Below are positions 11,757 to 36,709 of a DNA stretch of 57,515 nucleotides, one piece after another. Position numbers and translations under genes: made by a program. This stretch comes from an uncultured Bacilli bacterium (lineage in GTDB: Bacteria; Bacillota_I; Bacilli_A; RF39; UBA660), in contig CANRAC010000001.1 of assembly GCA_947628495.1 (NCBI GenBank), positions 1 to 57,515 on the forward strand, written 5' to 3'. Each line of letters begins with the position of its first letter. Within the stretch, counting starts at the first letter, position 1. The notes below the pieces were generated by a model. It had not been told where the DNA came from. It ran no database searches and worked only from the letters and a program-made list of their open reading frames with translations.

Positions 11757-14700
11757 ATGGAAGTAAGAAATAAAGTCGGAAGTGATAGGTCCGATTTGTA
11801 TAGGGGTTCGGGTCAATTAGGTAGTACTTTAGACTACCTAATGTATAACGACCCATCAACCTACTATTATCAAAAATTAAGAAGCACCAATAATCAATAT
11901 CTTAGAGATGACTATTGGTCCGAGGCTGCTAGACGAGGTGAGACTGACCAGCTTTTAGCATCTTTATTAAGCTGGGAGAACTTAGACAGTAATTTACAAG
12001 CAGCTAAAAAAGAGTTAGAAAGTTTCACACAAACTGGTGATGAAGAAAAAGATAACAAAAAGAAAAAAGAGCTTGAAGATAAAGTAAATCATTTGTCAAA
12101 TTTAAATAGCAATTATCTTGACAAAGTTAAAGATTATGCTGATAAAGGTTATGAAGACTATAATACCTATATGCTTGCTATGACTTTACCATTGTTTGAT
12201 GACCCCGAAAAGAAAGAGCGAGTCGATGAAGCATCTGGTTATAACTTCGGCTCGTATACTGATAAAGAATGGGCTGAAAAGGTTCTTGACTCAATTTTTG
12301 AGAGGTATGACGTTCAAATCGCTGAAGCTGAAAAAGAAAATATGAACTGGTTCCAAAAAGTTGGTGCGACAATAGGTTCTGGACTTCTAAGCTTTGTTGG
12401 TGGCGTCGTTAACTTTTTTGGCGATGTTGTTAATTTAGGCGAAGGTATTTTAAATTGTTTCTTCAACTTTAGTGATGATGCTACCTGGAATGACAGGTTC
12501 TTATGGGCATTTAGTGATGAGTCGACTGGGTTCTTTGAACAAGCAGGTGATTTGTTTAATGATATGGCTTATAAAGTAGCGTATGAATCTACTGATATGG
12601 TTAATATGGTTGATGCATATGATGCTGGTTATCGTCCAGCAAGTTGGGAAGGCATGATTTTTGGTACCGACAGAAGTCAAGGCGTTGGAGCAAGTTATAG
12701 AACTTGGGGCAAATGGTGGTCTGGAGCATTCTCTTCAATTGGCTATATGTTGCCATCAATGGTAATTAGTGCTGGAGTCAGTGCAATACCAGGTGGTGCA
12801 GCAATTGCTGGTAAAGTAGGTACTTCAGTATTTTATAGTGGTATCTTTTCAGGTAATATTAGTGATACTGTGAGTGCTGCGGCAAATGAAGGTATAAGTT
12901 ATAAAGACCTTAATGCTGGTGAAGTAGTTTCAAACGGCTTAATTAAGGCCGGCTTACAATGGGCGGTTGAAGTTGCTTTAGGTAAAATCTTAGGTTTTAG
13001 TGGACTAGACCAAGCAATAGGTATCGGTCGTGGCGCTGGTAAATTTGGCAATCTTGTTGGAGGTATGGGTGGTAAACTAGGCGCTATTGGCGTTACTGCA
13101 TTACGAGCCGGCCGTAGTATGGCTAAAGAAGGTCTTGAAGAAGTTTTACAAGATATGTCTGACTCTTTTGTTGATGCTATCTATGGCACAACAAATAGCA
13201 AAATAGCTGACCTATATTCTAGTAGAGCTCTTGAGACTATCAACCCTATGAACTTATTAGAGTCATTTGTTGTTGGTGCCTTAACTGAGGGCGTCATTAG
13301 TAGTTTACAAGGTGTTAAATATATTCTACCTAAAAACCGCGCAGTTCAAACAGATATAGACGGCAATGTTCAAGCTATGGGTTTCTTCCAGACATTAAAC
13401 TTTAATGCTGCTCTAGAAACTATGAATGACTGGAACAACATATTAAATGATAGTAAAGCAACTACAGAGGCTAAAGCTGATGTGGCTATGAAAATGAGTG
13501 CTGCTATCAATACTATTGGTTCCGTTTTAAAAAGCTTTGGACAATCTGATGCACTTAAAGTAAATCAAATACTTGATATCTATGCTGCTGGAGAAAAGAA
13601 AACTGAGTTGCTTGAAAAAGCAAATTTAAGTAACGAACAATATGCTACAAAATTATATGACTCATTCTTAACACATTATGCTGAAGTTGAGCGTAAATAT
13701 GTGCCTAAACCATTAAAAACCAAGATTAAAGAAACATTTGCCAAACTGGCAGATAAGTTTAAAAAGAAAGGTGTGACTGAAGTCAACAATATAATCACTA
13801 ATAAGATTGACGGCAATGACCCAGACGTGCCATTAAAATCAAACAATGTTGAAAACTTTAAAGCAGCACTTGAGAAATTAGGTGCTGAGGCAATTATTGG
13901 TACTAATGGTAATATTATTACTAAATCTGAAGACATTGTTGTTGTACCTAATAAATTGTTAGAGACAGGTGACCTTGCAACCATTATTCAAGGTGTTGCA
14001 TTCGACCAAGTTCAACAGGCCGTCATTAGTGCTTTAAGTCCTGCTCAACGTAAAATGATTGTTAGACAATATGAAAAAGCTACTGGTACTACATGCACTA
14101 CAGAGCAAGCCGTTCAAGCATTATTGTTTGATAAGGCATTCTATACTAGAATATTATTAGCAAGTGAAGAAGGACATAAATATAACGTCGAGGCCTTACA
14201 AGTATTAGCAACAATAAATAAAGTTGTTCAAGCTAAAGCATCTCCGTTATTAAAAAACGGCAAGTTAGCAAATGACGCTTATAATGTTTTAATGCAGAAA
14301 ATTCAAAAGACAATGCAAACCGGTTTAGTTACTTATTGTACTAAATATGCTCGTATTGACTTAGGTGAAATAACAAATGATATATTGTCACCTGAATTAA
14401 AAGAAGTAATTAAAAACCATCAAAATACAATCTTTAGTGAATTTGTCGATGAAGGTATTAAAGATACGAAGACTCAAGCTCCTGACTCTGAGAGGACGAC
14501 AAGGTTTGATACCTATCTTCAAAAGTTTTCGAGTTCATTAAGTGCTGAAGAGATAACAGAGTTAAAACAAAAAGCAAGAAGTACTAATGTTAATGATAGA
14601 GTTGACGCATATACAATGTTAACAGTTTTAAGTAGAAATAGCACTAGTCCTAATGCAACAAAAGATAAACTTGTTTATTTGCCAACTTCTCCAGACGGTA

Positions 14701-17700
14701 TTATTGAGCGTGAACATTTACAAAATGTCGAGAAGTTCTTTGGTCTAACTTGGGCTGAACTTATTTCAGGTAATTATGATGCTTCTAAGATTACTCAAGA
14801 AGGACGTAATTTCATTCAAGCTCAATATGATATGAGTGATAGGGCCTCCAGATTGGCTTGCATAAGAGATGCATTGTTTAATATCTCAGGCGGAACATTA
14901 ACTGTTGGTATGGATGGCTCAATTCTCGAGATAATGGAAAAAGACAAATTTGTTAAAGATAAGTATCTTGGCAAAGAAGGCACTAAAGCCTTTAGAGACG
15001 ATTTACGTAAAGGTGTAATTAAAACTGTTGCTGACGTAGTTAAAGTCGACTTAAAGAATAGTACTATCAAGAATATGAAACTTGTTAGAAGTGACACACT
15101 TAATGGTGCTAAAGGTGCATTTGTCTATGGTGATGACCATATTAGTTTCAGTGCTGGTGCAGACGTTAATACATTTATGCATGAATTAACTCATGTTACT
15201 CAATATGCATTAGATGTCACTGGTCAATCTGCTACTGGCGGTTATGCTGGTATGTTTAAATATATGACACCTGAGGCAGCTAAGTCATTAGACAACTATA
15301 TTGCTGAGAAGTTCCCGCTCACATATAATTATATGGTAAATCATAAAATATCTACTTATAATACTATATACTTTATGTTGGCAGGTGAACTACAAGCAAA
15401 TAGTACACTTGGCACTCATATGTTTGACGTCGGTTTCACATTCGATAAAGCCGGCACAGTTCTTGTTAGTCCAGATGGTAAAGAGCGTTGGAACTTAAAA
15501 GCTAATCAGTCTGATGCTCAAAAACAATTTAGACGAAATGTAGCTAAGGCTCGTCGAGAACTGAGTAAAGAGATTAAAAATCAGCAACAAGCAAATACTA
15601 CTGAAAATACTCAAACTACAAAAGCTACTACTGAAGCTAAAACTGAAACTAAGGCTGCTAGTCAATTAGACGAGAGAACCACTAAAGCATTAGATGAAGT
15701 AGTTAATAAAAATGTAAAGAAGGCAACTCGTGCTACTATCAATCAAGTGAACAATGCTACATTATATAAGGGTATGAATGTAAGTAAAGTCACTGAATTT
15801 GATAATACTAAAGGCAATAAGAAACGTATAGTGTCAAATGCTATATGGCTTACTGACAATAAGAATGTTGCTGAGTCTTATGCTAATAATAAACGAGCTT
15901 CTGCAACTGTTTATGATAGTAAAGTATCTATAAGCAATCCATTAGTCATCGATGCTAAAGGCCAAGCATTCTCTAGTATTATGGGTAACATTACGTCTGA
16001 CCAAATTGCAGTATATGCTCAAGAGCATGGCTATGACTCCCTTGTTATAAAGAATGTTCTTGATATTGGTCCATATTTAGGTAATGTGACTAATAGAGAA
16101 AATAGTATGAAACCAAGTACAGACGTCGTTATATTTGATAAAACTAAAGCAAAGATAACAAATGAAACTAAATACAGTGAGGATGAGACTTTAGACAATT
16201 TAGATAAAGAGTATACTGCTACTAAGCAAGAAGATAGAGGACAATTAGTTGGTGCAAACAAAAAGACTCAAGACGCATTTAATAATTTATCTGAAGATGC
16301 TATTGTTCAAATTATGAATTCAACTTCAGAAGATGTTGATTTAACACCTGAAGAAGAGCAATACGGTCTAGAGTTAGCAAAGGCATTGAAGATTAGACGT
16401 TTAACTCCTAAAGAAGAGTTTGCTCTAATGGGAGTTAAGGCCGAGGACTTTGCTCGAATTGCAGCCAATCAGAGTGATGCAAGTTTGTATCATTTAGCCG
16501 GAGATAGTATTATTGTTGACGTACTTAAAAATATATTCGACAAACTATATACAGATGGCTACTTAACCAAACCTGTTCGTTTAATAGAATTCTTTGCTGG
16601 TTATGGTGCACAAAACTTTGCTCTTGACTATTTAGGTAAAGATTACGAAAGTTGGAAAATTGCTGAATGGGCTGTAAAATCTATTCAAGCTTACAAAGAT
16701 GCTCATCATTCAACTGATACTAAGGACTATGCTGCTAATATGACTAAATCTGAGCTACTAGATTATTTAGTAAATATTGGTGTAAGTCTAAACTACAATA
16801 GTCCGGCAGGTCGTGAGTCTTTAAATACTAAGAGTCTACAAGAGTTAAAAGATATTTACAATAACATTCAGGCCACTCATAACTTAGTCAATATTCAAAA
16901 AGTGACTGGTGAGAGTTTGGAAATCACTGACACAGATAGTCATGATTATGTATTAACCTATTCGTTCCCTTGTCAAGATTTATCTCGGGCTGGTAAACGA
17001 GCGGGTATGCACGGTCAAGATACTTCTACTGGTACTCAGTTATCTTTGTTTGAAACAATTGAAAATGCTAGTCAAATCGAAACTCAAACACGTAGTGGTC
17101 TATTATGGGAAGTCGACAGAATATTAAAAGAGTTGTATGATGCTGACAAACCATTGCCTCAAGTACTTATAATGGAGAATGTGCCTGAAGTGCATAACTC
17201 TGTTAATAGGACTGACTTCAAACAATGGTTATCTAATCTACAAAAATATGGTTATACTAATAGTTATACTGATATAAAAGGTAGTGATTATGGTATACCA
17301 CAAAAACGTGTTAGAACTATTATGGTAAGTACTTTAAATAATAAAGCATTTACTTTCCCAGCTAAACAACAATTAAAGTCGTCTATGATGGACTATCTAG
17401 ACAAGAATGTTGATAACAAATATTACTTAACTGATAAACAAGCTAGAACATTTATGAGCTATCGTGAGTCATTTGATAATAATAAAACTACTCATCCAAT
17501 CAATACAAGTATAGCCTCTACTTTGACTACTAAACAGGAGAAGCGAGCTCAAGGTGGTAACTTCTATAGTCCACTTGTTGATAATGACGTCGACTTATAT
17601 GATTTGTTACACCCAACTAAGAATAGTGTACAAAATACTATTGATGCTTTAAATCAAGTCAAAGCTGGTCAAAAGATAACTGCTAGTCAACAAAAAATGT

Positions 17701-20700
17701 GGAGTGAGGATCGTGATTTAAGTCTAAATAAAAATTCTCGTCGTAGAAATAAAATGACTCAAGAAGAATTAAATAAATATAACCGGGACAGATATATTAC
17801 TAATAAAGAAGCACGCAAGTCTAACTTGAAATACTATATTCAAAAAGGCGTTACTATTAGATTACATCCAGGTGTCGCAGCATTTGTTGAAGCAACTACT
17901 CACGATTTTACAAAATTACCAACTATATTGCAAAATAAAATAGTTTCAGGAAAATTACTTTATAGTGATATTCTTGACTATATTAACACTGCAGCAAATA
18001 TGGATGATTATACATTTAAGGCAATTGCTAAATATGTGTTTAATAATGAACGACTTGCCAAATTGGATGTTAAAACATTACTTAAATTAGAAGACAGCTT
18101 GCATGAATTTGCTATGGCTGCATATTTGACTAAAGAACCTGATAAATATTTAACACCTAAACAAATGGCAGATACTTATAAAGAAGTTATTGCAAATAGT
18201 AGTCCTGAAAAAATCGAATGGGCTCAAAAATTTACGGAAAATATAGTACGAACTGATAGAGGTGGACACAATAAATATATCGAAGCAATACCACAAACAA
18301 ATCAGCTCAATGAGTCATTCTTTAAAAAGTATGATGGCACATTAGCTGGTATGCGTGAAATAAATAATTTGGCTAAAGCTGTTGCTAACATATATGATAC
18401 TCATCAAGTAGCTCGAGAAAATCAAAAAACTGCTACAGTTGAATATGACTATAGCACTACCGTAATTATTAAGAAAAATGACGACATTTCTAAAACGCTA
18501 GATAGTATTGATAAAGTTGAGAAGATGAATACTATTGAAGCTTATTATACAGATGTATTGATTAAACGTTTACAAGAAAAAATGGCAACTGAAGGTATTC
18601 GACCTGATAAAGAAGCAGTAATTGCTTTGAGACGTAAAATCGACGACATGGTTGATGATTTAGATAAATTGTCCGACACTGAACTTAATGCTAAATATCT
18701 AGAAGTATTAAATCAGAATAGTCAACAAAAGAAAAGTCTATCTGCTGTTACTGCTACAGCTACAATGCAAAGAACACCATATGAAGAACAAGAACGTTCA
18801 ATAAAAAATATTAAAGATACGTTTAGAGGCGTTGGTCGTACAATGACTCGTTGGCTTAAAAGTACCGAAGATGCTACTGATACTGAAAGGTTCTATAATA
18901 GATTGCCTGACAATATTAAGAAATGGTTTGACCCAAATAATGGTTATAAGCTAGTTTCAGATTATTATAAACTAAGTAAACAAGAAATTCTCGACTTACA
19001 AAGTAAAATACAAGCCGCTCGTGACCAAGTGAAACATTGGGTGAAAGCTGAAGAAGCTACTAAAGTTGCACTTAAAAAAAGTAAAGAACGTTTGTCAAAA
19101 CTACAAAAAGAATATAAAACATATCGTGAAAAAACTGAGGCTACTTTGAAAGAGAATAAAACCTTACGTCAAAAGGTACAAGTTGAGCACGTAGTTCGTA
19201 TTGAGGGCACTAATGTTACAAGTAGTTCTCCATCAAACCGTGTTGTTGAAGAGATATTAAAGACTAGCTGGAATAAGAAACGTATGGGCGAAGTACAAGA
19301 GCTTGATAATAATATTGAGCATGCAGTGGCTAATGCAAATACGTTCTTTAAAGAAAATGCTAATACTTTATTGTCAGCAAGCACGACAGAACTTGAAGAA
19401 GCTATTGCATTCTTTGCTAATAATACTACTAAGTTGACTGAAGACGAATTTGCTCGATTTAATGCTTTAAGAACTTACTTCTTTGGTTGGGTGCTTGAAG
19501 CAAATAAGAATGGACAAATTACTCTTAATGCAAATCTTAAACAACAAGTAAACAATATTATGCGTAATATGGCATCTAACTATGGTACTGGTTTGGCTGT
19601 GTGGAATAATATTCGACAAAGGTTAAATCCATTAGATAGTATGCGTTCGCAAGATATTGAGGTTGGTGGTATCACCCTTAATGACGACTTAAAAGACAAG
19701 TTGTTTGATGCTATTGAGTCTAATGATGTTGACGTAATGACTAAAACATATGAAGAGATTACTGAGTGGCTTGACGAACAACAATCTAGCAAGAAGGGTG
19801 TATTAAGACGTATAGTCGGCGTGCGCTCAATGGCTATGTTGTCTTCTCCACTTACTTGGTTAAGAAATAAAATGTCTAACTTTATGTTAAAACGTTTAAA
19901 TACATTATCTAGTAAAATAGGTAATGCAATGTTTAAAGGTAAAACTATGGCTGGACAGTTGAAGATGAACCAACAAGTAACTCCTGAAATACAAAAGTTT
20001 ATTACTGACAATATTATTGATAACGGTTTCTTTGACACATTTGTATCTAACTTGTCTAAGTTTAATGTAAGTGATATTGTTGCTAAAAACCAAAATAAGA
20101 TTGCTAAAGGCGAAACTTTGACTAGAGAAGAGATTACTACTCACTTAGTTCTCAAAGCAATTTACAATGAATACTATAACAATAATATGTTTAAGTCTAA
20201 ATTGTTAAATGACTTGCATAAGAATTTAATGAAGGTGATGAGTGATGACTCTTATGTGCGTGAAGCTGCTGTAAGGTATTTTGGTAAGATATTAGCTGAA
20301 AAGAAATATAGTCTCAAAGATGGCAAAATGACTGATGCTATAATGAATGACTTCTCAACTGCTATTGGTCTTGCACTTAATGACTATATGCACTCTGACA
20401 ACTTCTTCAACAATGTTGAACGTTGGTTATCTGATAGAAGTGAGCTTGGTTGGTTTGCTTATAAATTGATAATGCCTTATGCTGCATCATCTTGGAACTG
20501 GTTTAAGGCTGCTATAAGATATAGTCCTATTGGTCTTGGTCGTGCTATTTATAGAATAACTCACCTTGAACAACAGGTGGCTAAAGCCGAAGCAGATTAT
20601 ATCGCAGGTAAATCTAATGTATCTCCTGAACTTACAGAATACTTAATTCGCCGCGACTTAGGCTCTGGTGTAATTGGTACTGTGGCTATGGGACTTGGTG

Positions 20701-21629
20701 CATTACTTGCCGGTCTTGGCTTTATGCGACTTGAGGATGACGACTATGGTAAGCCTAAACTTCACATTGGTAATCTTGTTATTGACGTATCTGACATATT
20801 TGGTAGTTCTAGTGTTCTGGCTGGTGCTGCATTTGTTACCGGTATACAAGAGAAAGGTTGGACTTGGGAAGGTGTGCTAGATGCTTTGAATAGATTAGCA
20901 GATGTGACTATTGACGATTTACCAGTTATGGACATTGTTCAAATGGACATGTACTCTAATGGTTCATTCGATATGGGTCTTAATCAACTTGAGAGTATTG
21001 CATTAAGCTTTATACCTAATATCTTAAGCTGGTTTGCTGGTCTAACTTATACTGGCACTCTGAACAAACAGACATTCTTAGATAGAGCACTAGCTAAAAT
21101 ACCATTTGCCGCTAGATTAGTCGAAAAGAAGGTTGACCCTTATACTGGCAAGACTGACTCTTGGGCTGATTGGGTAGGACGTGCTGTTCCTTACTTCAGC
21201 TGGGATGCTGCATCTCAAAATGAACGTAAGACTACAGCATTAGGTTTAACTAAGACTATGCTTCGTGGACAGTATAAAGTTAATGGTGAAGACTTTAATG
21301 TTACAGGTAAAGACTTGACTGAAATCAATAAGACTTATGGTACTTTAAATGCTGAAGACTTAACTAAGTTCTATGAAAATAAATTAGCTGTTTCTGTTAA
21401 ACAAGAAAATGGCAAATATAAAACAATGACCTATAATCAAATGACCACTAAGCAACGACAGAATGCTGTATCAAGTATTATGCAAAATAATGCTGACCTT
21501 GTTAAGATTATTGCTTGGCTCAAAGCTGGTAATAAATATTACGCATCAAGCACTATTTATAATAAACTTGTTAAGTTAGGTATTACTAAAAATCTATATC
21601 GTGGCTCTAAAGGCTTTGTTAAAGGTTAA
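11757..21629 (+). CDS. giant polyvalent (multidomain, probably virion-packaged/ejected) protein, 3290 aa
   Basis: Single uninterrupted ORF with SD TAGGAGGTAAA-ATG. Has Gly-rich hydrophobic segments near the N-terminus (SGLLSFVGGVVNFFG; SMVISAGVSAIPGGAAIAG) and the C-terminus (VIGTVAMGLGALLAGLGF). Internal HELTH zincin motif, ART-like domain and C5-MTase motifs. Confidence 0.7.
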   Translation: MEVRNKVGSDRSDLYRGSGQLGSTLDYLMYNDPSTYYYQKLRSTNNQYLRDDYWSEAARRGETDQLLASLLSWENLDSNLQAAKKELESFTQTGDEEKDNKKKKELEDKVNHLSNLNSNYLDKVKDYADKGYEDYNTYMLAMTLPLFDDPEKKERVDEASGYNFGSYTDKEWAEKVLDSIFERYDVQIAEAEKENMNWFQKVGATIGSGLLSFVGGVVNFFGDVVNLGEGILNCFFNFSDDATWNDRFLWAFSDESTGFFEQAGDLFNDMAYKVAYESTDMVNMVDAYDAGYRPASWEGMIFGTDRSQGVGASYRTWGKWWSGAFSSIGYMLPSMVISAGVSAIPGGAAIAGKVGTSVFYSGIFSGNISDTVSAAANEGISYKDLNAGEVVSNGLIKAGLQWAVEVALGKILGFSGLDQAIGIGRGAGKFGNLVGGMGGKLGAIGVTALRAGRSMAKEGLEEVLQDMSDSFVDAIYGTTNSKIADLYSSRALETINPMNLLESFVVGALTEGVISSLQGVKYILPKNRAVQTDIDGNVQAMGFFQTLNFNAALETMNDWNNILNDSKATTEAKADVAMKMSAAINTIGSVLKSFGQSDALKVNQILDIYAAGEKKTELLEKANLSNEQYATKLYDSFLTHYAEVERKYVPKPLKTKIKETFAKLADKFKKKGVTEVNNIITNKIDGNDPDVPLKSNNVENFKAALEKLGAEAIIGTNGNIITKSEDIVVVPNKLLETGDLATIIQGVAFDQVQQAVISALSPAQRKMIVRQYEKATGTTCTTEQAVQALLFDKAFYTRILLASEEGHKYNVEALQVLATINKVVQAKASPLLKNGKLANDAYNVLMQKIQKTMQTGLVTYCTKYARIDLGEITNDILSPELKEVIKNHQNTIFSEFVDEGIKDTKTQAPDSERTTRFDTYLQKFSSSLSAEEITELKQKARSTNVNDRVDAYTMLTVLSRNSTSPNATKDKLVYLPTSPDGIIEREHLQNVEKFFGLTWAELISGNYDASKITQEGRNFIQAQYDMSDRASRLACIRDALFNISGGTLTVGMDGSILEIMEKDKFVKDKYLGKEGTKAFRDDLRKGVIKTVADVVKVDLKNSTIKNMKLVRSDTLNGAKGAFVYGDDHISFSAGADVNTFMHELTHVTQYALDVTGQSATGGYAGMFKYMTPEAAKSLDNYIAEKFPLTYNYMVNHKISTYNTIYFMLAGELQANSTLGTHMFDVGFTFDKAGTVLVSPDGKERWNLKANQSDAQKQFRRNVAKARRELSKEIKNQQQANTTENTQTTKATTEAKTETKAASQLDERTTKALDEVVNKNVKKATRATINQVNNATLYKGMNVSKVTEFDNTKGNKKRIVSNAIWLTDNKNVAESYANNKRASATVYDSKVSISNPLVIDAKGQAFSSIMGNITSDQIAVYAQEHGYDSLVIKNVLDIGPYLGNVTNRENSMKPSTDVVIFDKTKAKITNETKYSEDETLDNLDKEYTATKQEDRGQLVGANKKTQDAFNNLSEDAIVQIMNSTSEDVDLTPEEEQYGLELAKALKIRRLTPKEEFALMGVKAEDFARIAANQSDASLYHLAGDSIIVDVLKNIFDKLYTDGYLTKPVRLIEFFAGYGAQNFALDYLGKDYESWKIAEWAVKSIQAYKDAHHSTDTKDYAANMTKSELLDYLVNIGVSLNYNSPAGRESLNTKSLQELKDIYNNIQATHNLVNIQKVTGESLEITDTDSHDYVLTYSFPCQDLSRAGKRAGMHGQDTSTGTQLSLFETIENASQIETQTRSGLLWEVDRILKELYDADKPLPQVLIMENVPEVHNSVNRTDFKQWLSNLQKYGYTNSYTDIKGSDYGIPQKRVRTIMVSTLNNKAFTFPAKQQLKSSMMDYLDKNVDNKYYLTDKQARTFMSYRESFDNNKTTHPINTSIASTLTTKQEKRAQGGNFYSPLVDNDVDLYDLLHPTKNSVQNTIDALNQVKAGQKITASQQKMWSEDRDLSLNKNSRRRNKMTQEELNKYNRDRYITNKEARKSNLKYYIQKGVTIRLHPGVAAFVEATTHDFTKLPTILQNKIVSGKLLYSDILDYINTAANMDDYTFKAIAKYVFNNERLAKLDVKTLLKLEDSLHEFAMAAYLTKEPDKYLTPKQMADTYKEVIANSSPEKIEWAQKFTENIVRTDRGGHNKYIEAIPQTNQLNESFFKKYDGTLAGMREINNLAKAVANIYDTHQVARENQKTATVEYDYSTTVIIKKNDDISKTLDSIDKVEKMNTIEAYYTDVLIKRLQEKMATEGIRPDKEAVIALRRKIDDMVDDLDKLSDTELNAKYLEVLNQNSQQKKSLSAVTATATMQRTPYEEQERSIKNIKDTFRGVGRTMTRWLKSTEDATDTERFYNRLPDNIKKWFDPNNGYKLVSDYYKLSKQEILDLQSKIQAARDQVKHWVKAEEATKVALKKSKERLSKLQKEYKTYREKTEATLKENKTLRQKVQVEHVVRIEGTNVTSSSPSNRVVEEILKTSWNKKRMGEVQELDNNIEHAVANANTFFKENANTLLSASTTELEEAIAFFANNTTKLTEDEFARFNALRTYFFGWVLEANKNGQITLNANLKQQVNNIMRNMASNYGTGLAVWNNIRQRLNPLDSMRSQDIEVGGITLNDDLKDKLFDAIESNDVDVMTKTYEEITEWLDEQQSSKKGVLRRIVGVRSMAMLSSPLTWLRNKMSNFMLKRLNTLSSKIGNAMFKGKTMAGQLKMNQQVTPEIQKFITDNIIDNGFFDTFVSNLSKFNVSDIVAKNQNKIAKGETLTREEITTHLVLKAIYNEYYNNNMFKSKLLNDLHKNLMKVMSDDSYVREAAVRYFGKILAEKKYSLKDGKMTDAIMNDFSTAIGLALNDYMHSDNFFNNVERWLSDRSELGWFAYKLIMPYAASSWNWFKAAIRYSPIGLGRAIYRITHLEQQVAKAEADYIAGKSNVSPELTEYLIRRDLGSGVIGTVAMGLGALLAGLGFMRLEDDDYGKPKLHIGNLVIDVSDIFGSSSVLAGAAFVTGIQEKGWTWEGVLDALNRLADVTIDDLPVMDIVQMDMYSNGSFDMGLNQLESIALSFIPNILSWFAGLTYTGTLNKQTFLDRALAKIPFAARLVEKKVDPYTGKTDSWADWVGRAVPYFSWDAASQNERKTTALGLTKTMLRGQYKVNGEDFNVTGKDLTEINKTYGTLNAEDLTKFYENKLAVSVKQENGKYKTMTYNQMTTKQRQNAVSSIMQNNADLVKIIAWLKAGNKYYASSTIYNKLVKLGITKNLYRGSKGFVKG
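15180..15194 (+). other. HExxH zincin metalloprotease motif (HELTH, aa 1142-1146 of the giant protein)
   Basis: FMHELTHVTQY read directly. The frame was checked against the 11757 start. Confidence 0.5.
15753..16145 (+). other. ART-like (ADP-ribosyltransferase-like, polyvalent-protein type) domain, aa ~1333-1463
   Basis: NATLYKGM...IWLTDNKNVAESYA...SNPLVIDAKG...HGYDSLVIKNV...DVVIFD follows the strand/motif pattern I associate with ART domains of polyvalent proteins. Assigned by eye only. Confidence 0.35.
16395..17575 (+). other. C5-cytosine DNA methyltransferase domain with permuted motif order (IX-X-I-IV-VI-VIII-TRD), aa ~1547-1940
   Basis: Motifs in order: RRLTPKEEFALMGV (IX), LAGDSIIVDVLKNIF (X-like), IEFFAGYGAQ (I), YSFPCQDLSRAGKRAG (IV, catalytic Cys at 16971-16973), IMENVPEV (VI), GIPQKRVRTIMVS (VIII), ASTLTTKQ (TRD-like). 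Confidence 0.75.
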
Positions 21630-28130: not shown

Positions 28131-29417
28131 TTAGATTTTTCTTAATTTTGTTCTTGCTAATTTTTTTACTTTTTCTTTATAGTCTTTAATGCCATCATTT
28201 AATATTAGGTAATTATATGTCTGTAAGTATAACCAAATAATATCTGCAATTTCAACTGCAACGTTTGGGGTACAACCTCTAGTAGTTAATGCTGCAAAAC
28301 CAATTCGTAAACCAGAAGTATTTGCCGGACTTTCATCGTCTTCAGGTAACAAATTTTTATTGGTTGTTATACCAATATCTTCTAGCCTCAACTGAGCTGT
28401 AATACCTAACAAATTAAATGTATCTTTTGTGTTTAATAGTACTAAGTGATTATCAGTATCGGACACATTGCCACCAAGTTCTCTAATACGTTTTGAGAAT
28501 GCTTGCATATTTGCTTTTAACATTTTAATATACTTTTTGAACTCGTCAGTATATGCTTCTTCAAAACAAATTGCTTTTGCTGCAATTGTATTTTCTAATG
28601 GACCACCTTGATAATAAGGGAATACGGCTTGATTAACATATTTAATTAAACGCTCATCATTAGTTAAAATCAAACCACCCCGAGGTCCTCTTAGAGTTTT
28701 GTGAGTTGTAGTGGTCACAATATCTGCATAAGGTATTGGACTCATACATTCACCTGCTGCAACTAGACCTGCAATATGTGCCATATCAACCATCAATTTA
28801 CAGTCATATTTAATTGCTAACTCTTTGAATTTACTAAAGTCAATTTCATAAGGGTATGAAGAGTAGCCAGCCAATATAACGTCAGGTCTATTTGCTTTAA
28901 TTGCTTCTTCTACTAAGTCAAAATGAATATGTCGATCTTCACCTAATTTATAATAACTAAAGTCATACAAATTAGAACTAAAACTTACAGAAGAGCCGTG
29001 AGATAGGTGTCCACCGTGTCCTAACTCCATAGCCAAAATTTTCATTTGTCTATGTACTTTTACTTTGCCTGTGCCACGAACATATAATTTGTGGTCTTCT
29101 TCTAGCATTTTCTCTAAAGCTCGATATGCTTCAGCATTTGCTTGGCTGCCACTATGCGGTTGAACATTTGCAAATTTACAATTAAACAAACGACATGCTC
29201 TATCAATTGCTAATTGCTCAAGTTGGTCTACATTCTCGCAACCACCATAGTATCTATGACCAGGATAGCCTTCAGCATACTTATTTGTTAAACAGCTCGA
29301 CAATGCTTGTCTAACAGATTTACTAGCAAAATTTTCACTAGCGATAAGTTCGAGACATTCATTTTGTCTCTTGTTTTCTGCTTTAATCAATGCAAAAACT
29401 TTCTTATCTTTTTTCAT
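28131..29417 (-). CDS. glyA: serine hydroxymethyltransferase
   Basis: Hallmark PLP-lysine motif VTTTTHKTLRGPRGG, plus ELIASENF and YPGHRYYGGCE. Start placed at the ATG at 29417 (MKKDKKVFALI) after CAGGAGGACTAT. Confidence 0.9.
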   Translation of the reverse strand: MKKDKKVFALIKAENKRQNECLELIASENFASKSVRQALSSCLTNKYAEGYPGHRYYGGCENVDQLEQLAIDRACRLFNCKFANVQPHSGSQANAEAYRALEKMLEEDHKLYVRGTGKVKVHRQMKILAMELGHGGHLSHGSSVSFSSNLYDFSYYKLGEDRHIHFDLVEEAIKANRPDVILAGYSSYPYEIDFSKFKELAIKYDCKLMVDMAHIAGLVAAGECMSPIPYADIVTTTTHKTLRGPRGGLILTNDERLIKYVNQAVFPYYQGGPLENTIAAKAICFEEAYTDEFKKYIKMLKANMQAFSKRIRELGGNVSDTDNHLVLLNTKDTFNLLGITAQLRLEDIGITTNKNLLPEDDESPANTSGLRIGFAALTTRGCTPNVAVEIADIIWLYLQTYNYLILNDGIKDYKEKVKKLARTKLRKI

Positions 29418-29444
29418 ATAGTCCTCCTGTGCACTTAGTAGTGC

Positions 29445-29490
29445 TGGTGAGCCAGGTGAGAATTGCACTCACTATTCACTTGTCTGACTC
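29445..29490 (-). ncRNA. tRNA-like acceptor/T-arm minihelix with encoded ACCA in the glyA 5' leader
   Basis: The - strand reads GAGUCAG-ACAAGUGAAUA-GUGAG-UGCAAUU-CUCAC-CUGGCUC-ACCA. This gives a 7-bp acceptor-like helix (one U.G), a 5-bp stem with a 7-nt T-like loop, then A+CCA. Confidence 0.4.
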
Positions 29491-29493
29491 ATA

Positions 29494-29522
29494 AAAAGTT
29501 TCTAGAAGGTCTAGAAACTTTT
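29494..29522 (-). terminator. perfect 13-bp hairpin, intrinsic terminator (usable on both strands)
   Basis: AAAAGTTTCTAGA-cct-TCTAGAAACTTTT followed by TAT on the - strand. Its core GUUUCUAGA/UCUAGAAAC is followed by UUUUUAU. The + strand also has a T/A-rich tail. Confidence 0.7.
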
Positions 29523-29539
29523 AATATAATATACAGAAG

Positions 29540-29637
29540 AAGACCATCAGACTTCTGTGCATATTTAAAGTATCAAAGGAGGTATACCTTAGATAGTAGA
29601 TTTGTTAAATGGGGTATATTTAACAATGATGGTCTTT
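29540..29637 (-). ncRNA. 98-nt helix-closed RNA module
   Basis: AAGACCAUCA (29637-29628) pairs with UGAUGGUCUU (29549-29540). Inside are a 9-bp hairpin UUGUUAAAU-auacccc-AUUUAACAA and a competing ACAGAAG/CUUCUGU helix. Confidence 0.3.
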
Positions 29638-29659
29638 ACTGACGCGTCAGCTCGTCAGT

Positions 29660-29733
29660 CAGGAAGGTGAGATTTGCACTCACATCTGAGGCGCCTGGTC
29701 GGCCTTATGTTACTACCGTTACACCACTTCCTG
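29660..29733 (-). ncRNA. 74-nt tRNA-like cloverleaf (anticodon position CCA; non-canonical anticodon loop and T-loop)
   Basis: CAGGAAG-UG-GUGU-AACGGUAGUA-ACAU-A-AGGCC-GACCAGG-CGCCU-CAGAU-GUGAG-UGCAAAU-CUCAC-CUUCCUG. Perfect 7-bp acceptor, 4-bp D stem, 4 bp plus C.C in the anticodon stem, 5-nt variable loop, 5-bp T stem. U8, A14, GG and G53-C61 are present. U33 and U55 are absent. Confidence 0.5.
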
Positions 29734-29740
29734 GCAAAAG

Positions 29741-29821
29741 ATAGGTTTGGTGCGTCGGGCCGAATATCACTTTCGATACACACCAATTCGTGAGCCGGCC
29801 ATCTCCTTATCTATAACCTAT
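29741..29821 (-). ncRNA. 81-nt helix-closed module with pseudoknot potential
   Basis: Closing helix AUAGGUU/AACCUAU. Inside, GGCC..GAAU (29800-29786) pairs with AUUCGGCC (29765-29758). This is interleaved with UGGUGUG (29785-29779) / CGCACCA (29754-29748). Confidence 0.3.
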
Positions 29822-29831
29822 CTCTTGAAGT

Positions 29832-29894
29832 GCCTGATAACAGAGTTGCACTGTTAGTGGCCGCTATGGTTGGCCGCCACGCTCTTGCTCAGAC
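29832..29894 (-). ncRNA. 63-nt tRNA-like module lacking a D-arm
   Basis: GUCUGAG...AUCAGGC (6 of 7 bp, one U.G) encloses the long hairpin GUGGCGGC-caaccaua-GCGGCCAC and the T-arm-like AACAG-UGCAACU-CUGUU. Confidence 0.3.
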
Positions 29895-29897
29895 ATG

Positions 29898-29919
29898 TAG
29901 GTGCTTTAAGGTGCACCTA
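29898..29919 (-). other. hairpin just after the SSB-like gene stop
   Basis: UAGGUGC-accuuaaa-GCACCUA, 7 bp, with no U-tract. Possibly a processing or stability element rather than a terminator. Confidence 0.3.
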
Positions 29920-29932
29920 AACCTGTGGTAAA

Positions 29933-30469
29933 TTATTCTCCAAATTCGTCGCCAGACAAATGAGAAGTCAATGGTTCGCCATCACGTGTTTTTAATACAT
30001 TGTTCAACACTGCACTAACACCGCGACGTCCATCTCCACTGTAAGCGAAGAATGTCATAGAAACTCTACCATACATACCGCTGTATACTTCAGTTGGGTC
30101 AATAATTTCTTGCCTGTCGGCATTCAAAACTTTTGGTTTGAACTTAGTAGACAAACGAATATAATAATTACCTTTATATTCAGGGTATTTATTATTTATT
30201 AGTTCTCCTAAGTCGTCAACTGCTGTATCACCATCTTTAAATGTGTGATTAACGTTTGTAGGTACTCTACCACCAAAGTGTTTTTGTGCCCCTGCTTCAG
30301 CTGCTGCTTGAATTGCAGCTTTAATAGCATTTACAGTTTTGGTATCAGTTTTTGGGATGATAGCCGTAACTGAGTATTTTGGCGTATCGCCTTCTTTCAT
30401 AGCTTTTGGTTCAAATACGTTTACGAATGACAATCTGCATTCACCTGTAACAACTTGATTATTGTTCAT
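29933..30469 (-). CDS. ssDNA-binding protein, DUF2815 type
   Basis: N-terminal GECRLSFVNVFEPKA...KYSVTAIIPKTD and C-terminal YSGMYGRVSMTFFAY...GVSAVLNNV match the DUF2815 pattern. Paired with the adjacent DUF2800 nuclease, as is usual. Confidence 0.7.
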   Translation of the reverse strand: MNNNQVVTGECRLSFVNVFEPKAMKEGDTPKYSVTAIIPKTDTKTVNAIKAAIQAAAEAGAQKHFGGRVPTNVNHTFKDGDTAVDDLGELINNKYPEYKGNYYIRLSTKFKPKVLNADRQEIIDPTEVYSGMYGRVSMTFFAYSGDGRRGVSAVLNNVLKTRDGEPLTSHLSGDEFGE

Positions 30470-32029: not shown

Positions 32030-32443
32030 TTACTTGTCTTCAGTTAACTTATGATAATACTCATTTATTAACTGAACAAAATAACTTCCGCTTTTTTCTC
32101 CGAAGCCATTAGGCTCAAGCTCTGCCGCCATTTTAGCAATTCCATCTGCAATCTCAGGAAGTGCACCATTGACATCAAACTCGTAGCCATCATTAAGCTC
32201 CATACCATCATCCGCTTCACTAACTGTGAGTTTTGGTCTTGTTCTAATAGTCAAGATAGTTTTTGCTTTTAGACTATCTTCTTTGAACAAATCTTGTAAC
32301 GAAGTTTTATCTTGTTGGTCCATACTTAATCTCCTTTCCATATCTACTCGACGTTCTAAGTCATTGATTTTATTTACTAGTACAGGTGTGACGATAAAGA
32401 ATATAACACCAAACAATATTAAGATATATTGTAGTGCACTCAT
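32030..32443 (-). CDS. membrane-anchored hypothetical protein
   Basis: 137-aa ORF with N-terminal TM ALQYILILFGVIFFIVTPVLV. ATGA overlap with the dUTPase stop. Confidence 0.55.
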   Translation of the reverse strand: MSALQYILILFGVIFFIVTPVLVNKINDLERRVDMERRLSMDQQDKTSLQDLFKEDSLKAKTILTIRTRPKLTVSEADDGMELNDGYEFDVNGALPEIADGIAKMAAELEPNGFGEKSGSYFVQLINEYYHKLTEDK

Positions 32444-32850
32444 TTACCTGTGCTCCCAAACGCTCCAGAGCCGCGCTCTTCACCCATATCTTCAGTATAA
32501 TCTGCATAAATACAAGGTGTAATAACTAAATAGCCTATTCTGTCACCTTCGTGATAAACAAACTGATTATCAGTAGGATTATTGACAATCATATGAATTT
32601 CACCTTTATAACCTGCATCAATCGCACAATGGTGAACATGAATACCTTGTTTTGCTATTGAAGTTCTCTCTTGTATATATGCATTTAGTCCATCAGGCAA
32701 ATCAATGCCAAAACCTAACGGACATACTTGTACTGAATGTGGTGGCACTATACCATTATATGGCATATAAATATCAGCACCTGTATCATTAAAATGTTTT
32801 CTCTCTGGTAAAACTGCTTTGTCACTAAACCGTATGAAGTGTATCTTCAT
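32440..32850 (-). CDS. dut: dUTPase
   Basis: DTGADIYMP (motif I), CAIDAGYKGEI (motif III), RGSGAFGSTGK (motif V). Confidence 0.9.
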   Translation of the reverse strand: MKIHFIRFSDKAVLPERKHFNDTGADIYMPYNGIVPPHSVQVCPLGFGIDLPDGLNAYIQERTSIAKQGIHVHHCAIDAGYKGEIHMIVNNPTDNQFVYHEGDRIGYLVITPCIYADYTEDMGEERGSGAFGSTGK

Positions 32851-33547
32851 TTTTAACCTCCTGTGGTTCTACATACTTATGACCACAACTAAATTTGCCT
32901 TCTTTACAATAAGAATTAACACAGTTTGGTAGACATAAATCTGCCCAAGCATTACCGCATTGTGTTCTAATCTCATGTAAAATCAATTCACAAATGTGTT
33001 GTACTTCACGAGTATTACGATTACATAACCTAATAGACAACATATACTGCCAAGCTGGGAAATTGCCATGAATCACTAAGCACTTCTTTAAACTCTGTGG
33101 TAGTAAATAACCTGCTCTATCTCGGTCGACTCCGTTGTCATACATGGTTATGTAGGCATTATGAATATCTTGACATGCTTGTTTATAAATTTCTTCTTGC
33201 TCAGGTGTTAAACCTTCTGGAACAACATATGGACTTTGTACTTTTGTAAACTCACTATATTGTGTCGAAGTAGAAACAAATGTTAACCTTGTTGCATGTG
33301 TTCTTAATTGTGAAACAGCTTTTGTTGACAAACCATAAATAGCAACTGTTAATTCACACATTCTAAAGATTGTTGAATGTGGCAAACTCAATAATTGTTT
33401 CGATGGTTGTTTGTAGACATTGTCATTATATAATTTCAACAAGTCATCCAAACTACTTATCTCTGAGCCACGCTGAGTTAACTTTGCTAAGAATAGTGGA
33501 GTGCCATCAAGGTTGTGTTTCAAGATAGCAACTTTAATATCTTGCAT
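32825..33547 (-). CDS. thyX: FAD-dependent thymidylate synthase ThyX-like, with degenerate ThyX motif
   Basis: PHSTIFRMCELTVAIYGLSTKAVSQL and ARYLLPQSL...NFPAWQYMLSIRLCNRNTREVQ follow the ThyX fold pattern. The signature RHRxxSxxxxSxRY is replaced by RTHATRLTFVSTSTQY. Confidence 0.65.
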   Translation of the reverse strand: MQDIKVAILKHNLDGTPLFLAKLTQRGSEISSLDDLLKLYNDNVYKQPSKQLLSLPHSTIFRMCELTVAIYGLSTKAVSQLRTHATRLTFVSTSTQYSEFTKVQSPYVVPEGLTPEQEEIYKQACQDIHNAYITMYDNGVDRDRAGYLLPQSLKKCLVIHGNFPAWQYMLSIRLCNRNTREVQHICELILHEIRTQCGNAWADLCLPNCVNSYCKEGKFSCGHKYVEPQEVKNEDTLHTV

Positions 33548-36130: not shown

Positions 36131-36709
36131 CTACTTAGTGTTTAAATATGCGAAATACAACAATTCGCCAGTTATCTCGTTAATAGACAACCTATTAGAC
36201 CAATCATAAATTGCAAAGTTATATTTATTTGTATTTGCCTGAACAACAGACATAGCAAAATCATATACTTTAGACAATTCTTTATGTCGTTCTAATGCAA
36301 CAGGATTGTCGTCACCACGAGCATTCATTGCCTCTTCAGCATTCTTTGTTCTACAATAAACAATAAATATTCTTTTATTATACTTTTTAATAAAGTCAAT
36401 AAGTTTATTTATTGTTGTAACTGACTTGAAATTATCAAAGATACGATAAACTATATCACTGATAGGTCCTCGGTCCATAATGTGTATGTCACCATCAGTT
36501 GCCATCATTTTCAATCTGTGATATAATTCTTTTTCTGTTACCCTATCTCGCTTTGCCGGATGAGTGGACACCCTGGTCTCAGCAACCGGGTCTATTATTG
36601 TTTGCCTGCTTATATTTAATGCAGCTCTTTTCTCTTCTAGTGCTTTATATAAGTGATTTGCTAAAGTTGTTTTACCTGAACCATCTGGTCCTTCTAAATA
36701 AATAATCAT
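36131..36709 (-). CDS. tmk: thymidylate (dNMP) kinase
   Basis: P-loop MIIYLEGPDGSGKTTL and the DR motif MDRGPISDIVY. Confidence 0.75.
   Translation of the reverse strand: MIIYLEGPDGSGKTTLANHLYKALEEKRAALNISRQTIIDPVAETRVSTHPAKRDRVTEKELYHRLKMMATDGDIHIMDRGPISDIVYRIFDNFKSVTTINKLIDFIKKYNKRIFIVYCRTKNAEEAMNARGDDNPVALERHKELSKVYDFAMSVVQANTNKYNFAIYDWSNRLSINEITGELLYFAYLNTK

Follow-up and report, generated by a model that had tools for sequence, protein, structure and literature searches.

What is a tRNA-shaped sequence that seems unable to read a codon doing between two genes of a phage replication module? The question is raised by a 74-nt element, here called TLS2, on the minus strand (29660..29733) of contig CANRAC010000001.1, a stretch of 57,515 nt that we refer to in its entirety as the window. 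The window is an essentially complete ~57.5-kb phage genome, with terminase and portal genes, and its source is an uncultured gut/rumen phage. TLS2 lies in the 515-nt gap between the gene for a single-stranded DNA-binding protein (SSB) upstream and that for a serine hydroxymethyltransferase (SHMT) homolog downstream. The original prediction, made from the letters of this DNA, had described a cloverleaf with an altered anticodon loop and T-loop and had raised the idea of a phage tRNA-Trp that escapes host anticodon nucleases, with a pseudo-tRNA as the null hypothesis; the phage setting on which it relied is borne out by the terminase, portal and replication genes of the same window. Here, we confirm that TLS2 is real and tRNA-derived, and not a product of chance. 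Judged by its loop, which cannot decode, and by its proline-type acceptor end, it is not a working tRNA-Trp. The reading we favour, with a probability of about 55%, is that of a non-decoding tRNA relic or a tRNA-shaped processing element in a hypervariable island.

The TLS2 cloverleaf and its tRNA ancestry

On the minus strand, TLS2 reads CAGGAAG UG GUGU AACGGUAGUA ACAU A AGGCC GACCAGG CGCCU CAGAU GUGAG UGCAAAU CUCAC CUUCCUG, exactly as first written down, with the anticodon loop (GACCAGG) at 29694-29700 and the T arm (GUGAG UGCAAAU CUCAC) at 29667-29683. On its 3' side, A73 at position 29659 is followed by CUG, which confirms that no CCA is encoded. The geometry is that of a canonical tRNA cloverleaf, with four of five pairs in the anticodon stem, and the core and elbow positions U8, A14, A15-U48, A21, U54, C56, A58 and G53-C61 are all present. 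Altogether, 20 of the 21 base pairs and the tertiary positions are intact, and the damage is concentrated in 31-39, where at least five positions are abnormal. This cloverleaf lies at most 1.7 kcal/mol from the minimum free energy (MFE) fold, and the local G+C content amounts to 51-55%, as against ~35% for the whole window.

Standard detectors pass over the element. With default settings, ARAGORN called neither a tRNA nor a transfer-messenger RNA (tmRNA) in the window, and its 95% setting likewise returned no call; Rfam 15 left TLS2 unmatched both at gathering thresholds across the window and at E<=10 within 29400-30000. When thresholds were relaxed to 90% (ARAGORN -ps90), a check that the original prediction had itself advised, the program returned a single call in the window, which is TLS2, and drew the same cloverleaf that had been proposed: a 7-bp acceptor, a 4-bp D stem, an anticodon stem of 4 bp plus C.C and a 5-bp T stem, labelled tRNA-Trp(cca). 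Taken by itself, this relaxed score is weak because 12 such calls arose in 40 dinucleotide-shuffled windows. A strict-geometry scan, which demanded exact module lengths and pairing of 7/7 in the acceptor, 4/4 in the D stem, at least 4/5 in the anticodon stem and 5/5 in the T stem, matched the real window once, at TLS2, versus one match in 60 block-shuffled windows (0.017 expected per window). Besides, a covariance model that we built from 107 class-I phage tRNAs (R1) gave TLS2 a score of 35.8 bits (E about 9e-9), far ahead of any other match in the window. Class-I tRNAs of related phages reach 41-69 bits with this model, and the aberrant tRNA-like elements of those relatives 25-31 bits.

TLS2 is significantly homologous to tRNAs and yet defective in its loop, at the 31-39 pair, at position 73 and at the CCA end, as would suit a tRNA pseudogene or tRNA-derived relic; this is close to the pseudo-tRNA that the original prediction had named as its null hypothesis. 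At the same time, TLS2 has the acceptor/T-arm coaxial helix with a T-loop, situated between cistrons of the same strand, that characterizes a processing signal of the t-element type.

Anticodon arm, acceptor end and elbow

A decoding-competent loop has 7 nt, with Y32, U33 and R37 on a paired 31-39, and TLS2 presents GACCAGG on a C.C mismatch instead; G32, A33 and the C.C closing pair had all been pointed out from the start. As a comparison set we used 1708 unique phage tRNAs from fetched loci, in which A33 occurs three times (0.2%), G32 17 times (1%), G38 52 times (3%) and G37 209 times (12%). TLS2 carries all four, and the combination of G32, G37 and G38 is absent from the entire set. Nor does the loop hold a single U, be it counted as 7 nt or, with C31.C39 taken as unpaired, as 9 nt. 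Given the combined A33, G32, G37 and G38, the lack of a loop U and the C.C closing pair, a U-turn and normal decoding are implausible.

The triplet CCA occupies positions 34-36 in the sole register that yields a 7-nt loop, and to this extent the assignment to Trp stands. The acceptor end tells otherwise. G73 is a major identity element needed by bacterial TrpRS, and C1-G72 with A73 are identity elements of the proline type. TLS2 has A73, versus the G-CCA end of the canonical tRNA-Trp in the related phage locus L034, and it shares acceptor stem, T stem and trailing AC, without any difference, with a bona fide phage tRNA-Pro(CGG) in L198 (C1-G72, A73). By these positions the acceptor end is proline-type and not Trp-type, and the Trp label is carried by the triplet alone. 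The D arm is of a generic type also seen in Gln, Trp, Met, His and other phage tRNAs, and TLS2 as a whole looks chimeric, with a Pro-type acceptor/T arm, a generic D arm and a CCA triplet.

G55 in the T-loop had been counted as a further deviation, which it is not: this nucleotide is normal in a subclass of phage tRNAs with AG in the D loop. A scan of IMG/VR with the T-arm sequence, position 55 being left free, returned 105 cases with U, 17 with G and none with A or C, and many of the G55 cases are ordinary tRNAs by ARAGORN default with normal anticodon loops. Among the 1708 phage tRNAs, 61 have G55, in T-loops of UGCAA or UGCGA; 54 of these 61 carry AG, not GG, in the D loop, versus GG in 1570 of 1631 U55 tRNAs. 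In the subset not selected by T arm, AG is found in 12/12 G55 and 10/601 U55 tRNAs (Fisher p = 1e-19). The G55 tRNAs are concentrated in few phages, the cases coming from IMG/VR loci L102-L341 (e.g. L103, L328). These counts suggest that an A18:G55 elbow contact replaces G18:Psi55 (Psi, pseudouridine) in a phage tRNA subclass. The D loop of TLS2, AACGGUAGUA, terminates in GUAGUA, as it does in the G55 class, and as G55 is here paired with the class-typical D loop, the TLS2 elbow appears coherent and of the A18:G55 type. The GG first singled out in this D loop is present, but the functional partner is probably the AG of ...GUAGUA. We found no mention of A18/G55 covariation in the literature, which is not proof of its being unknown. 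Of the G55 tRNAs it may further be said that they could not get Psi55 from TruB.

A fast-changing island behind the SSB gene

The conserved anchor of the region is the gene for the Enc34/T7 gp2.5-type SSB (29933..30469, minus strand; PF10991 3e-54, phrog_112). More than 1000 homologs of this protein exist in public assemblies, many of them on contigs of 55-60 kb, and we compared the gap in ~20 relatives with SSB identities of 69-89%. Its content differs in nearly every one. Canonical tRNAs are present in some, i.e. tRNA-Gln(UUG) in L026 and L035 and tRNA-Trp(CCA) in L034; besides these, there are many aberrant elements that retain the T arm and a fully paired acceptor of 7 bp and that encode NCCA; their middle consists of a mini-hairpin or a long stem, or else of an AU-rich insert of 40-190 nt. 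The common layout runs from the SSB stop codon through a covarying hairpin and a leader ending in U(-1) to the tRNA-like element, NCCA, a further hairpin and the ribosome-binding site, and the first tRNA or tRNA-like element begins at G1 right after this hairpin and leader. L001, L002 and L031, with an SSB that is 89% identical, hold a different tRNA-like element in the gap. In distant SSB relatives (35-44% identity), R1 matches are few, and almost all of them lie directly 3' of the SSB gene. Comparison of these loci indicates that the post-SSB site is a conserved yet dispensable, fast-turnover tRNA/tRNA-like island of ~56-kb phages, dispensable because one clade with a 71% identical SSB has a gap without any tRNA-like element.

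Elements with an insert or a long stem lie at approximately L085:2082-2190, L098:2078-2202, L033:1350-1562, L026:3031-3124, L087:2076-2154 and 2295-2377, L099:2075-2158 and L343:722-806. In all of them, the acceptor is perfect and T arm and NCCA are retained, the anticodon arm having given way to a stem of 9-11 bp or an AU-rich insert of 40-190 nt, and their acceptor and T stems vary between phages with full compensation. The first-position elements L026:2584-2655, L099:2075-2158 and L100:1882-1967 share GAAGACYGKGUGGUU after the acceptor, and the apical loop of their long 'anticodon' stem contains CUAG; they might conceivably be an unusual amber-suppressor-like tRNA, and these phages give no sign of recoding. 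For the window itself, a role in stop-codon recoding or suppression was rejected, its open reading frames (ORFs) being long under the standard code.

The gap of the window is G+C-rich compared with the genome and strongly structured (MFE z = -6.6), and all of its elements described below lie on the minus strand. Hairpins with a stem of at least 5 bp and a loop of the form UGCAANU occur three times in the whole window, both strands considered, and all three are in the gap on the minus strand: in TLS2 (29667-29683), in TLS1 (29838-29856) and in TLS3 (29454-29472). TLS1 (29831..29894), recognized from the gap fold and its UGCAANU hairpin, is a cruder tRNA-like element whose acceptor is GUCUGA/UCAGGC. 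Its mini D hairpin has only 2 bp (GC AAGA GC), an arm of 7 bp carries a loop of 8 nt, the T arm reads UAACAG UGCAACU CUGUUA, and no CCA is encoded. It occupies the site of the relatives' first tRNA or tRNA-like gene; R1 did not detect it on the minus strand, and it is the weakest of the three elements. TLS3 (29445..29490), found by R1 (17.1 bits, E 0.006) and by a minihelix scan, is an acceptor/T-arm minihelix that encodes ACCA and sits immediately 5' of the ribosome-binding site of SHMT; it consists of GAGUCAG, an 11-nt linker, GUGAG UGCAAUU CUCAC and CUGGCUC. By position and sequence it has a homolog in L085, the loop of which is UUCAAUU. TLS3 and TLS2 share a 26-nt direct repeat (29447-29472 and 29658-29683; 85% identical, 211 nt apart) that covers T arm and 3' acceptor. 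This repeat resembles a duplication from recombination or insertion at a tRNA 3' end. An attP site or integration scar was rejected as its origin, there being no integrase among the ORFs screened and an 'insert' of only ~185 nt.

Directly after the SSB stop codon, a hairpin conserved in relatives, UAGGUGC ACCUUAAA GCACCUA (29898..29925), is preceded by AGGUUU and followed by a short leader that ends in U before G1 of the first tRNA-like element. It is present in 11/12 relatives, with the compensatory stems GGUGC/GCACC, GGUGU/ACACC, GGCGU/ACGCC, GGACGU/ACGUCC and GCAGUUGU/ACAACUGC, changes that were read by eye because the MAFFT register is imperfect. Its loop, ACCUU(A/C)A, has its complement in a conserved AAGGU that lies a few bases further upstream, in the window as well as in 11/12 relatives, and the two could possibly form a pseudoknot or an alternative helix after the stop codon.

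Between TLS1 and TLS2, a long irregular hairpin domain (29736..29826; inverted repeat I3, MFE fold) is closed by a helix of 12-13 bp, AAGAGAUAGGUU/AACCUAUCUUUU. Directly 3' of TLS2 stands the hairpin CUGACG AGCUGA CGcGUCAG (29639..29658; inverted repeat I5, fold). A hammerhead reading of CUGACGAG, just 3' of TLS2, was discarded, as there is no GAAA after stem II and no Rfam match. Then comes an AU-rich domain (29540..29636; inverted repeat I4, fold) with a perfect 10-bp long-range closing helix, AAGACCAUCA/UGAUGGUCUU. Within it, positions 29575-29583 form an anti-Shine-Dalgarno-like ACCUCCUUU that is paired in part with an AAGG close by. Such motifs sit in apical loops or inserts in 10/13 gaps, e.g. 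as ACCUCCU (L033, L034, L098) or GCUCCU (L087, L093, L099, L100), and are complementary to the downstream gene's strong AGGAG site, with which they could pair. Antisense small ORFs were rejected as the reason for the motif, their start codon being inconsistent across relatives. Finally, a terminator-like 13-bp hairpin followed by UUUUU lies between TLS2 and TLS3 (29493..29522), recognized by a sau-19-like hairpin match, inverted repeat I2 and the fold; a terminator scan missed this hairpin, which has few G-C pairs. Neither tmRNA (ARAGORN default, Rfam 15) nor riboswitch or ribozyme (Rfam 15) was matched, and an SHMT riboswitch of the ZTP or THF kind was likewise dropped (no Rfam match in 29400-30000 at E<=10).

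Downstream of the gap, the SHMT gene (28131..29417, minus strand; PF00464 5e-123) truly starts at the ATG at 29417-29415, which is preceded by AGGAGG, and codes for 428 aa, as called in L020. Together with the SSB it belongs to a minus-strand replication and nucleotide arm that further comprises a DUF2800 nuclease, HNH, helicase, primase, DNA polymerase, dUTPase/DCD, a ThyA-like protein, Tmk, ligase and a sigma factor; no integrase was seen among the window ORFs screened. BLAST of the gap and of 9.6 kb of the replication module against named phages gave no match, and a scan of genome contigs brought up distant relatives only. The SHMT gene co-occurs with genes for a dUTPase/dCTP-deaminase-like protein, a thymidylate-synthase homolog and a thymidylate kinase (within 32440-33547 and 36131-36709), which suggests that the phage makes a modified pyrimidine for its own DNA. 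Elsewhere in the window, the ORF at 11757-21629 codes for 3290 aa; apart from a DNA methyltransferase domain in its centre (residues ~1540-2020) it matches no family, and it may represent a large injected or virion-associated multi-domain protein.

Relic, processing element or decoy

TLS2 has tRNA ancestry, an intact body, a defective loop and an island for its context. Our preferred explanation is that a tRNA gene lost its ability to decode, while a body stemming from the phage-specific A18:G55 class was kept intact. Transcribed with the SSB operon, TLS2 would fold into an L shape. The acceptor/T-arm helix alone is a substrate for RNase P and RNase Z, and for this reason TLS2 would be cut out of any transcript of the region, with host RNase P acting at the 5' end and RNase Z or exonucleases at the 3' end. 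If any role remains, TLS2 would act along with TLS1 and TLS3 as tRNA-shaped punctuation of the SSB-to-SHMT transcript, cleavage leaving an SSB mRNA that ends in the conserved hairpin and is parted from the downstream cistron. Such a role is plausible because the layout from SSB stop codon to ribosome-binding site is conserved in relatives. The concentration of the damage in positions 31-39 implies either that the body is under selection or that the loop suffered a single recent hit, e.g. through cassette recombination.

Several observations weigh against this explanation. No TLS2 ortholog was found outside its own phage species: exact-pattern scans of IMG/VR for the anticodon arm and for the T-arm/acceptor gave 0 matches, a fuzzy search of 340+ fetched loci for the anticodon arm hit the own species only, and the SHMT-anchored relatives, of which the nearest is 69% identical, have gaps without TLS2. 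Six contigs of the same species were retrieved, three of which span the gap and show one single-nucleotide polymorphism (SNP) in TLS2, in the D loop at 29717; these three differ by ~0.6% in the gap and 0.8% overall, too few SNPs to inform on selection. TLS2 encodes no NCCA, in contrast to all tRNAs and tRNA-like elements that were detected in the gaps of relatives, and its -1 nucleotide is C, not U; these two features may make it less suitable for RNase P than its neighbours are. The clade that lacks any tRNA-like element in the gap also speaks against a needed function, and with a terminator-like hairpin between TLS2 and SHMT, a single SSB-to-SHMT transcript is not assured.

How, then, do other explanations fare? 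A purely neutral pseudogene, that is, a recent casualty of tRNA-cassette recombination, unprocessed or irrelevant and bound to decay or be deleted, would account for the chimeric look, for the 26-nt repeat common to TLS2 and TLS3 and for the absence of both orthologs and the family-norm NCCA, and reports of tRNA pseudogenes from phage tRNA clusters are routine (e.g. PMC5852040). We nevertheless consider it unlikely, as random decay would scatter the damage and not leave 20/21 pairs and the tertiary positions intact beside at least five abnormal positions in 31-39, and as an intact acceptor/T-arm is an RNase P substrate for which some processing is hard to avoid if transcribed. More doubtful still is a functional, non-decoding decoy or sponge, the body of which would soak up a host tRNA-targeting defence enzyme or tRNA-binding factor while the scrambled loop keeps TLS2 off the ribosome and uncleavable, the G55 T-loops of all three gap elements being selected by a trans-acting factor. 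That the anticodon loop alone is damaged in an otherwise perfect body would suit a decoy, as would the UGCAA T-loops shared by the three elements (though the TLS3 homolog in L085 has UUCAAUU), and phage tRNAs do counter tRNA-targeting defences (PMC10264068, PMC11464382, PMC11555353). Against it stand the lack of a TLS2 ortholog in any relative, the turnover of island content in nearly every one, the lack of an evident partner protein nearby and the missing CCA end, which acceptor-targeting toxins need unless it is added post-transcriptionally.

The working tRNA-Trp(CCA) of the original prediction, with loop substitutions that resist a host anticodon nuclease, we regard as very improbable. It can point to CCA at 34-36 in an intact body and to the canonical tRNA-Trp(CCA) that L034 has in the same gap, and the precedent it invoked, loop substitutions in phage tRNAs, is indeed published (van den Berg et al. 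2023, PMC10264068). However, those tRNAs are otherwise functional and still recognised by standard tools, unlike TLS2, which stays below ARAGORN default and without an Rfam match at E<=10. A33 abolishes the U-turn in a U-free loop; the G32/G37/G38 combination (0/1708) comes with a C.C closing mismatch, and A73 and C1-G72 are of Pro type by the identity rules given above. Scarcely credible, finally, is an element acting at the DNA level, with three AGAnTTGCACT hairpins as iterons or protein-binding sites of a replication origin. The site does lie among replication genes, the 11-nt repeat family has three copies and an AU-rich stretch is adjacent, but these repeats coincide exactly with the T-loops of tRNA-geometry elements, they all lie on the coding strand, true tRNA genes occupy the same site in relatives, and the R1 covariance match depends on RNA pairing.

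A bolder version of our preferred explanation, which we put forward tentatively and with low confidence, would have TLS1, TLS2, TLS3 and the acceptor/T-arm/NCCA elements of the relatives form a selected class of non-decoding phage RNAs, serving either as punctuation that sets SSB mRNA stability or stoichiometry or as tRNA-body decoys. TLS2 would then be active and recently recruited from a tRNA gene, and the shared G55 (with A18 where a D loop exists) would reflect adaptation to, or evasion of, a reader of the T-loop or elbow, e.g. TruB or an elbow-binding defence protein.

Known systems offer partial parallels. The T4 stable RNAs C and D (species 1 and 2) are small RNAs of unknown function among the T4 tRNA genes, with tRNA-like termini and matured by the tRNA machinery; they are longer than TLS2 and, going by description, resemble the insert-bearing elements of L085, L098 and L033 more than TLS2. 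Further tRNA-like processing signals are known from mascRNA/MALAT1 and mitochondrial tRNA punctuation. Plant mitochondrial t-elements provide a precedent for punctuation (PMC1920247). Like t-elements and mascRNA, TLS2 is tRNA-shaped, non-decoding and placed between cistrons, with an acceptor/T-arm geometry that is enough for RNase P and RNase Z, whereas those signals operate in an organelle or the nucleus and TLS2 sits in a bacteriophage operon where cleavage would be expected from its shape. In phage tRNA clusters, a tRNA pseudogene has been reported among the tRNA-like sequences of Xanthomonas phage XacN1 (PMC5852040); such genes are, as TLS2 is, tRNA-derived, on the strand of their neighbours, devoid of decoding determinants and below the threshold of tRNA finders. 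Yet the window has no detectable bona fide tRNA, its island is tiny (515 nt), tied to the SSB and made of aberrant elements only, and the TLS2 body is unusually well kept. Phage tRNAs insensitive to anticodon nucleases (PMC10264068; T5 tRNA against PARIS, PMC11464382, and phage tRNA against retron effectors, PMC11555353) share with TLS2 a phage-encoded tRNA shape and an anticodon loop off the norm. Those tRNAs work and bear one or few substitutions, whereas TLS2 has lost U33, is abnormal at 32, 37 and 38 and has a broken closing pair. TLS2 may also be likened to tmRNA and to YrlA, a bacterial Y-RNA-like RNA (PMC4201824), in which a tRNA-like domain has acceptor and T arm and no decoding anticodon arm. 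Unlike these, TLS2 keeps the full four-arm cloverleaf and has neither a tag reading frame nor a Ro-binding stem, and membership in either or in another curated family was rejected with no ARAGORN tmRNA call and no Rfam 15 match.

In summary, TLS2 adds a member to a category already known from phage tRNA clusters, that of broken tRNAs (e.g. PMC5852040); taken alone, it is one more such tRNA of small consequence. The wider context is of more interest, with an island of tRNA-shaped RNAs, most of them non-decoding, linked to the SSB and with an elbow class of the A18:G55 type, both of them of putative function. A large family of uncultured gut/rumen phages keeps a fast-changing cassette of tRNAs and tRNA-shaped RNAs immediately after its SSB gene, many of these RNAs retaining only the parts recognised by RNase P, RNase Z, the CCA-adding enzyme and EF-Tu, and a subclass of phage tRNAs appears to swap the near-universal G18:Psi55 elbow contact for A18:G55. 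Should the non-decoding elements prove functional, they would represent an example of tRNA-like punctuation or decoys in a bacterial virus.

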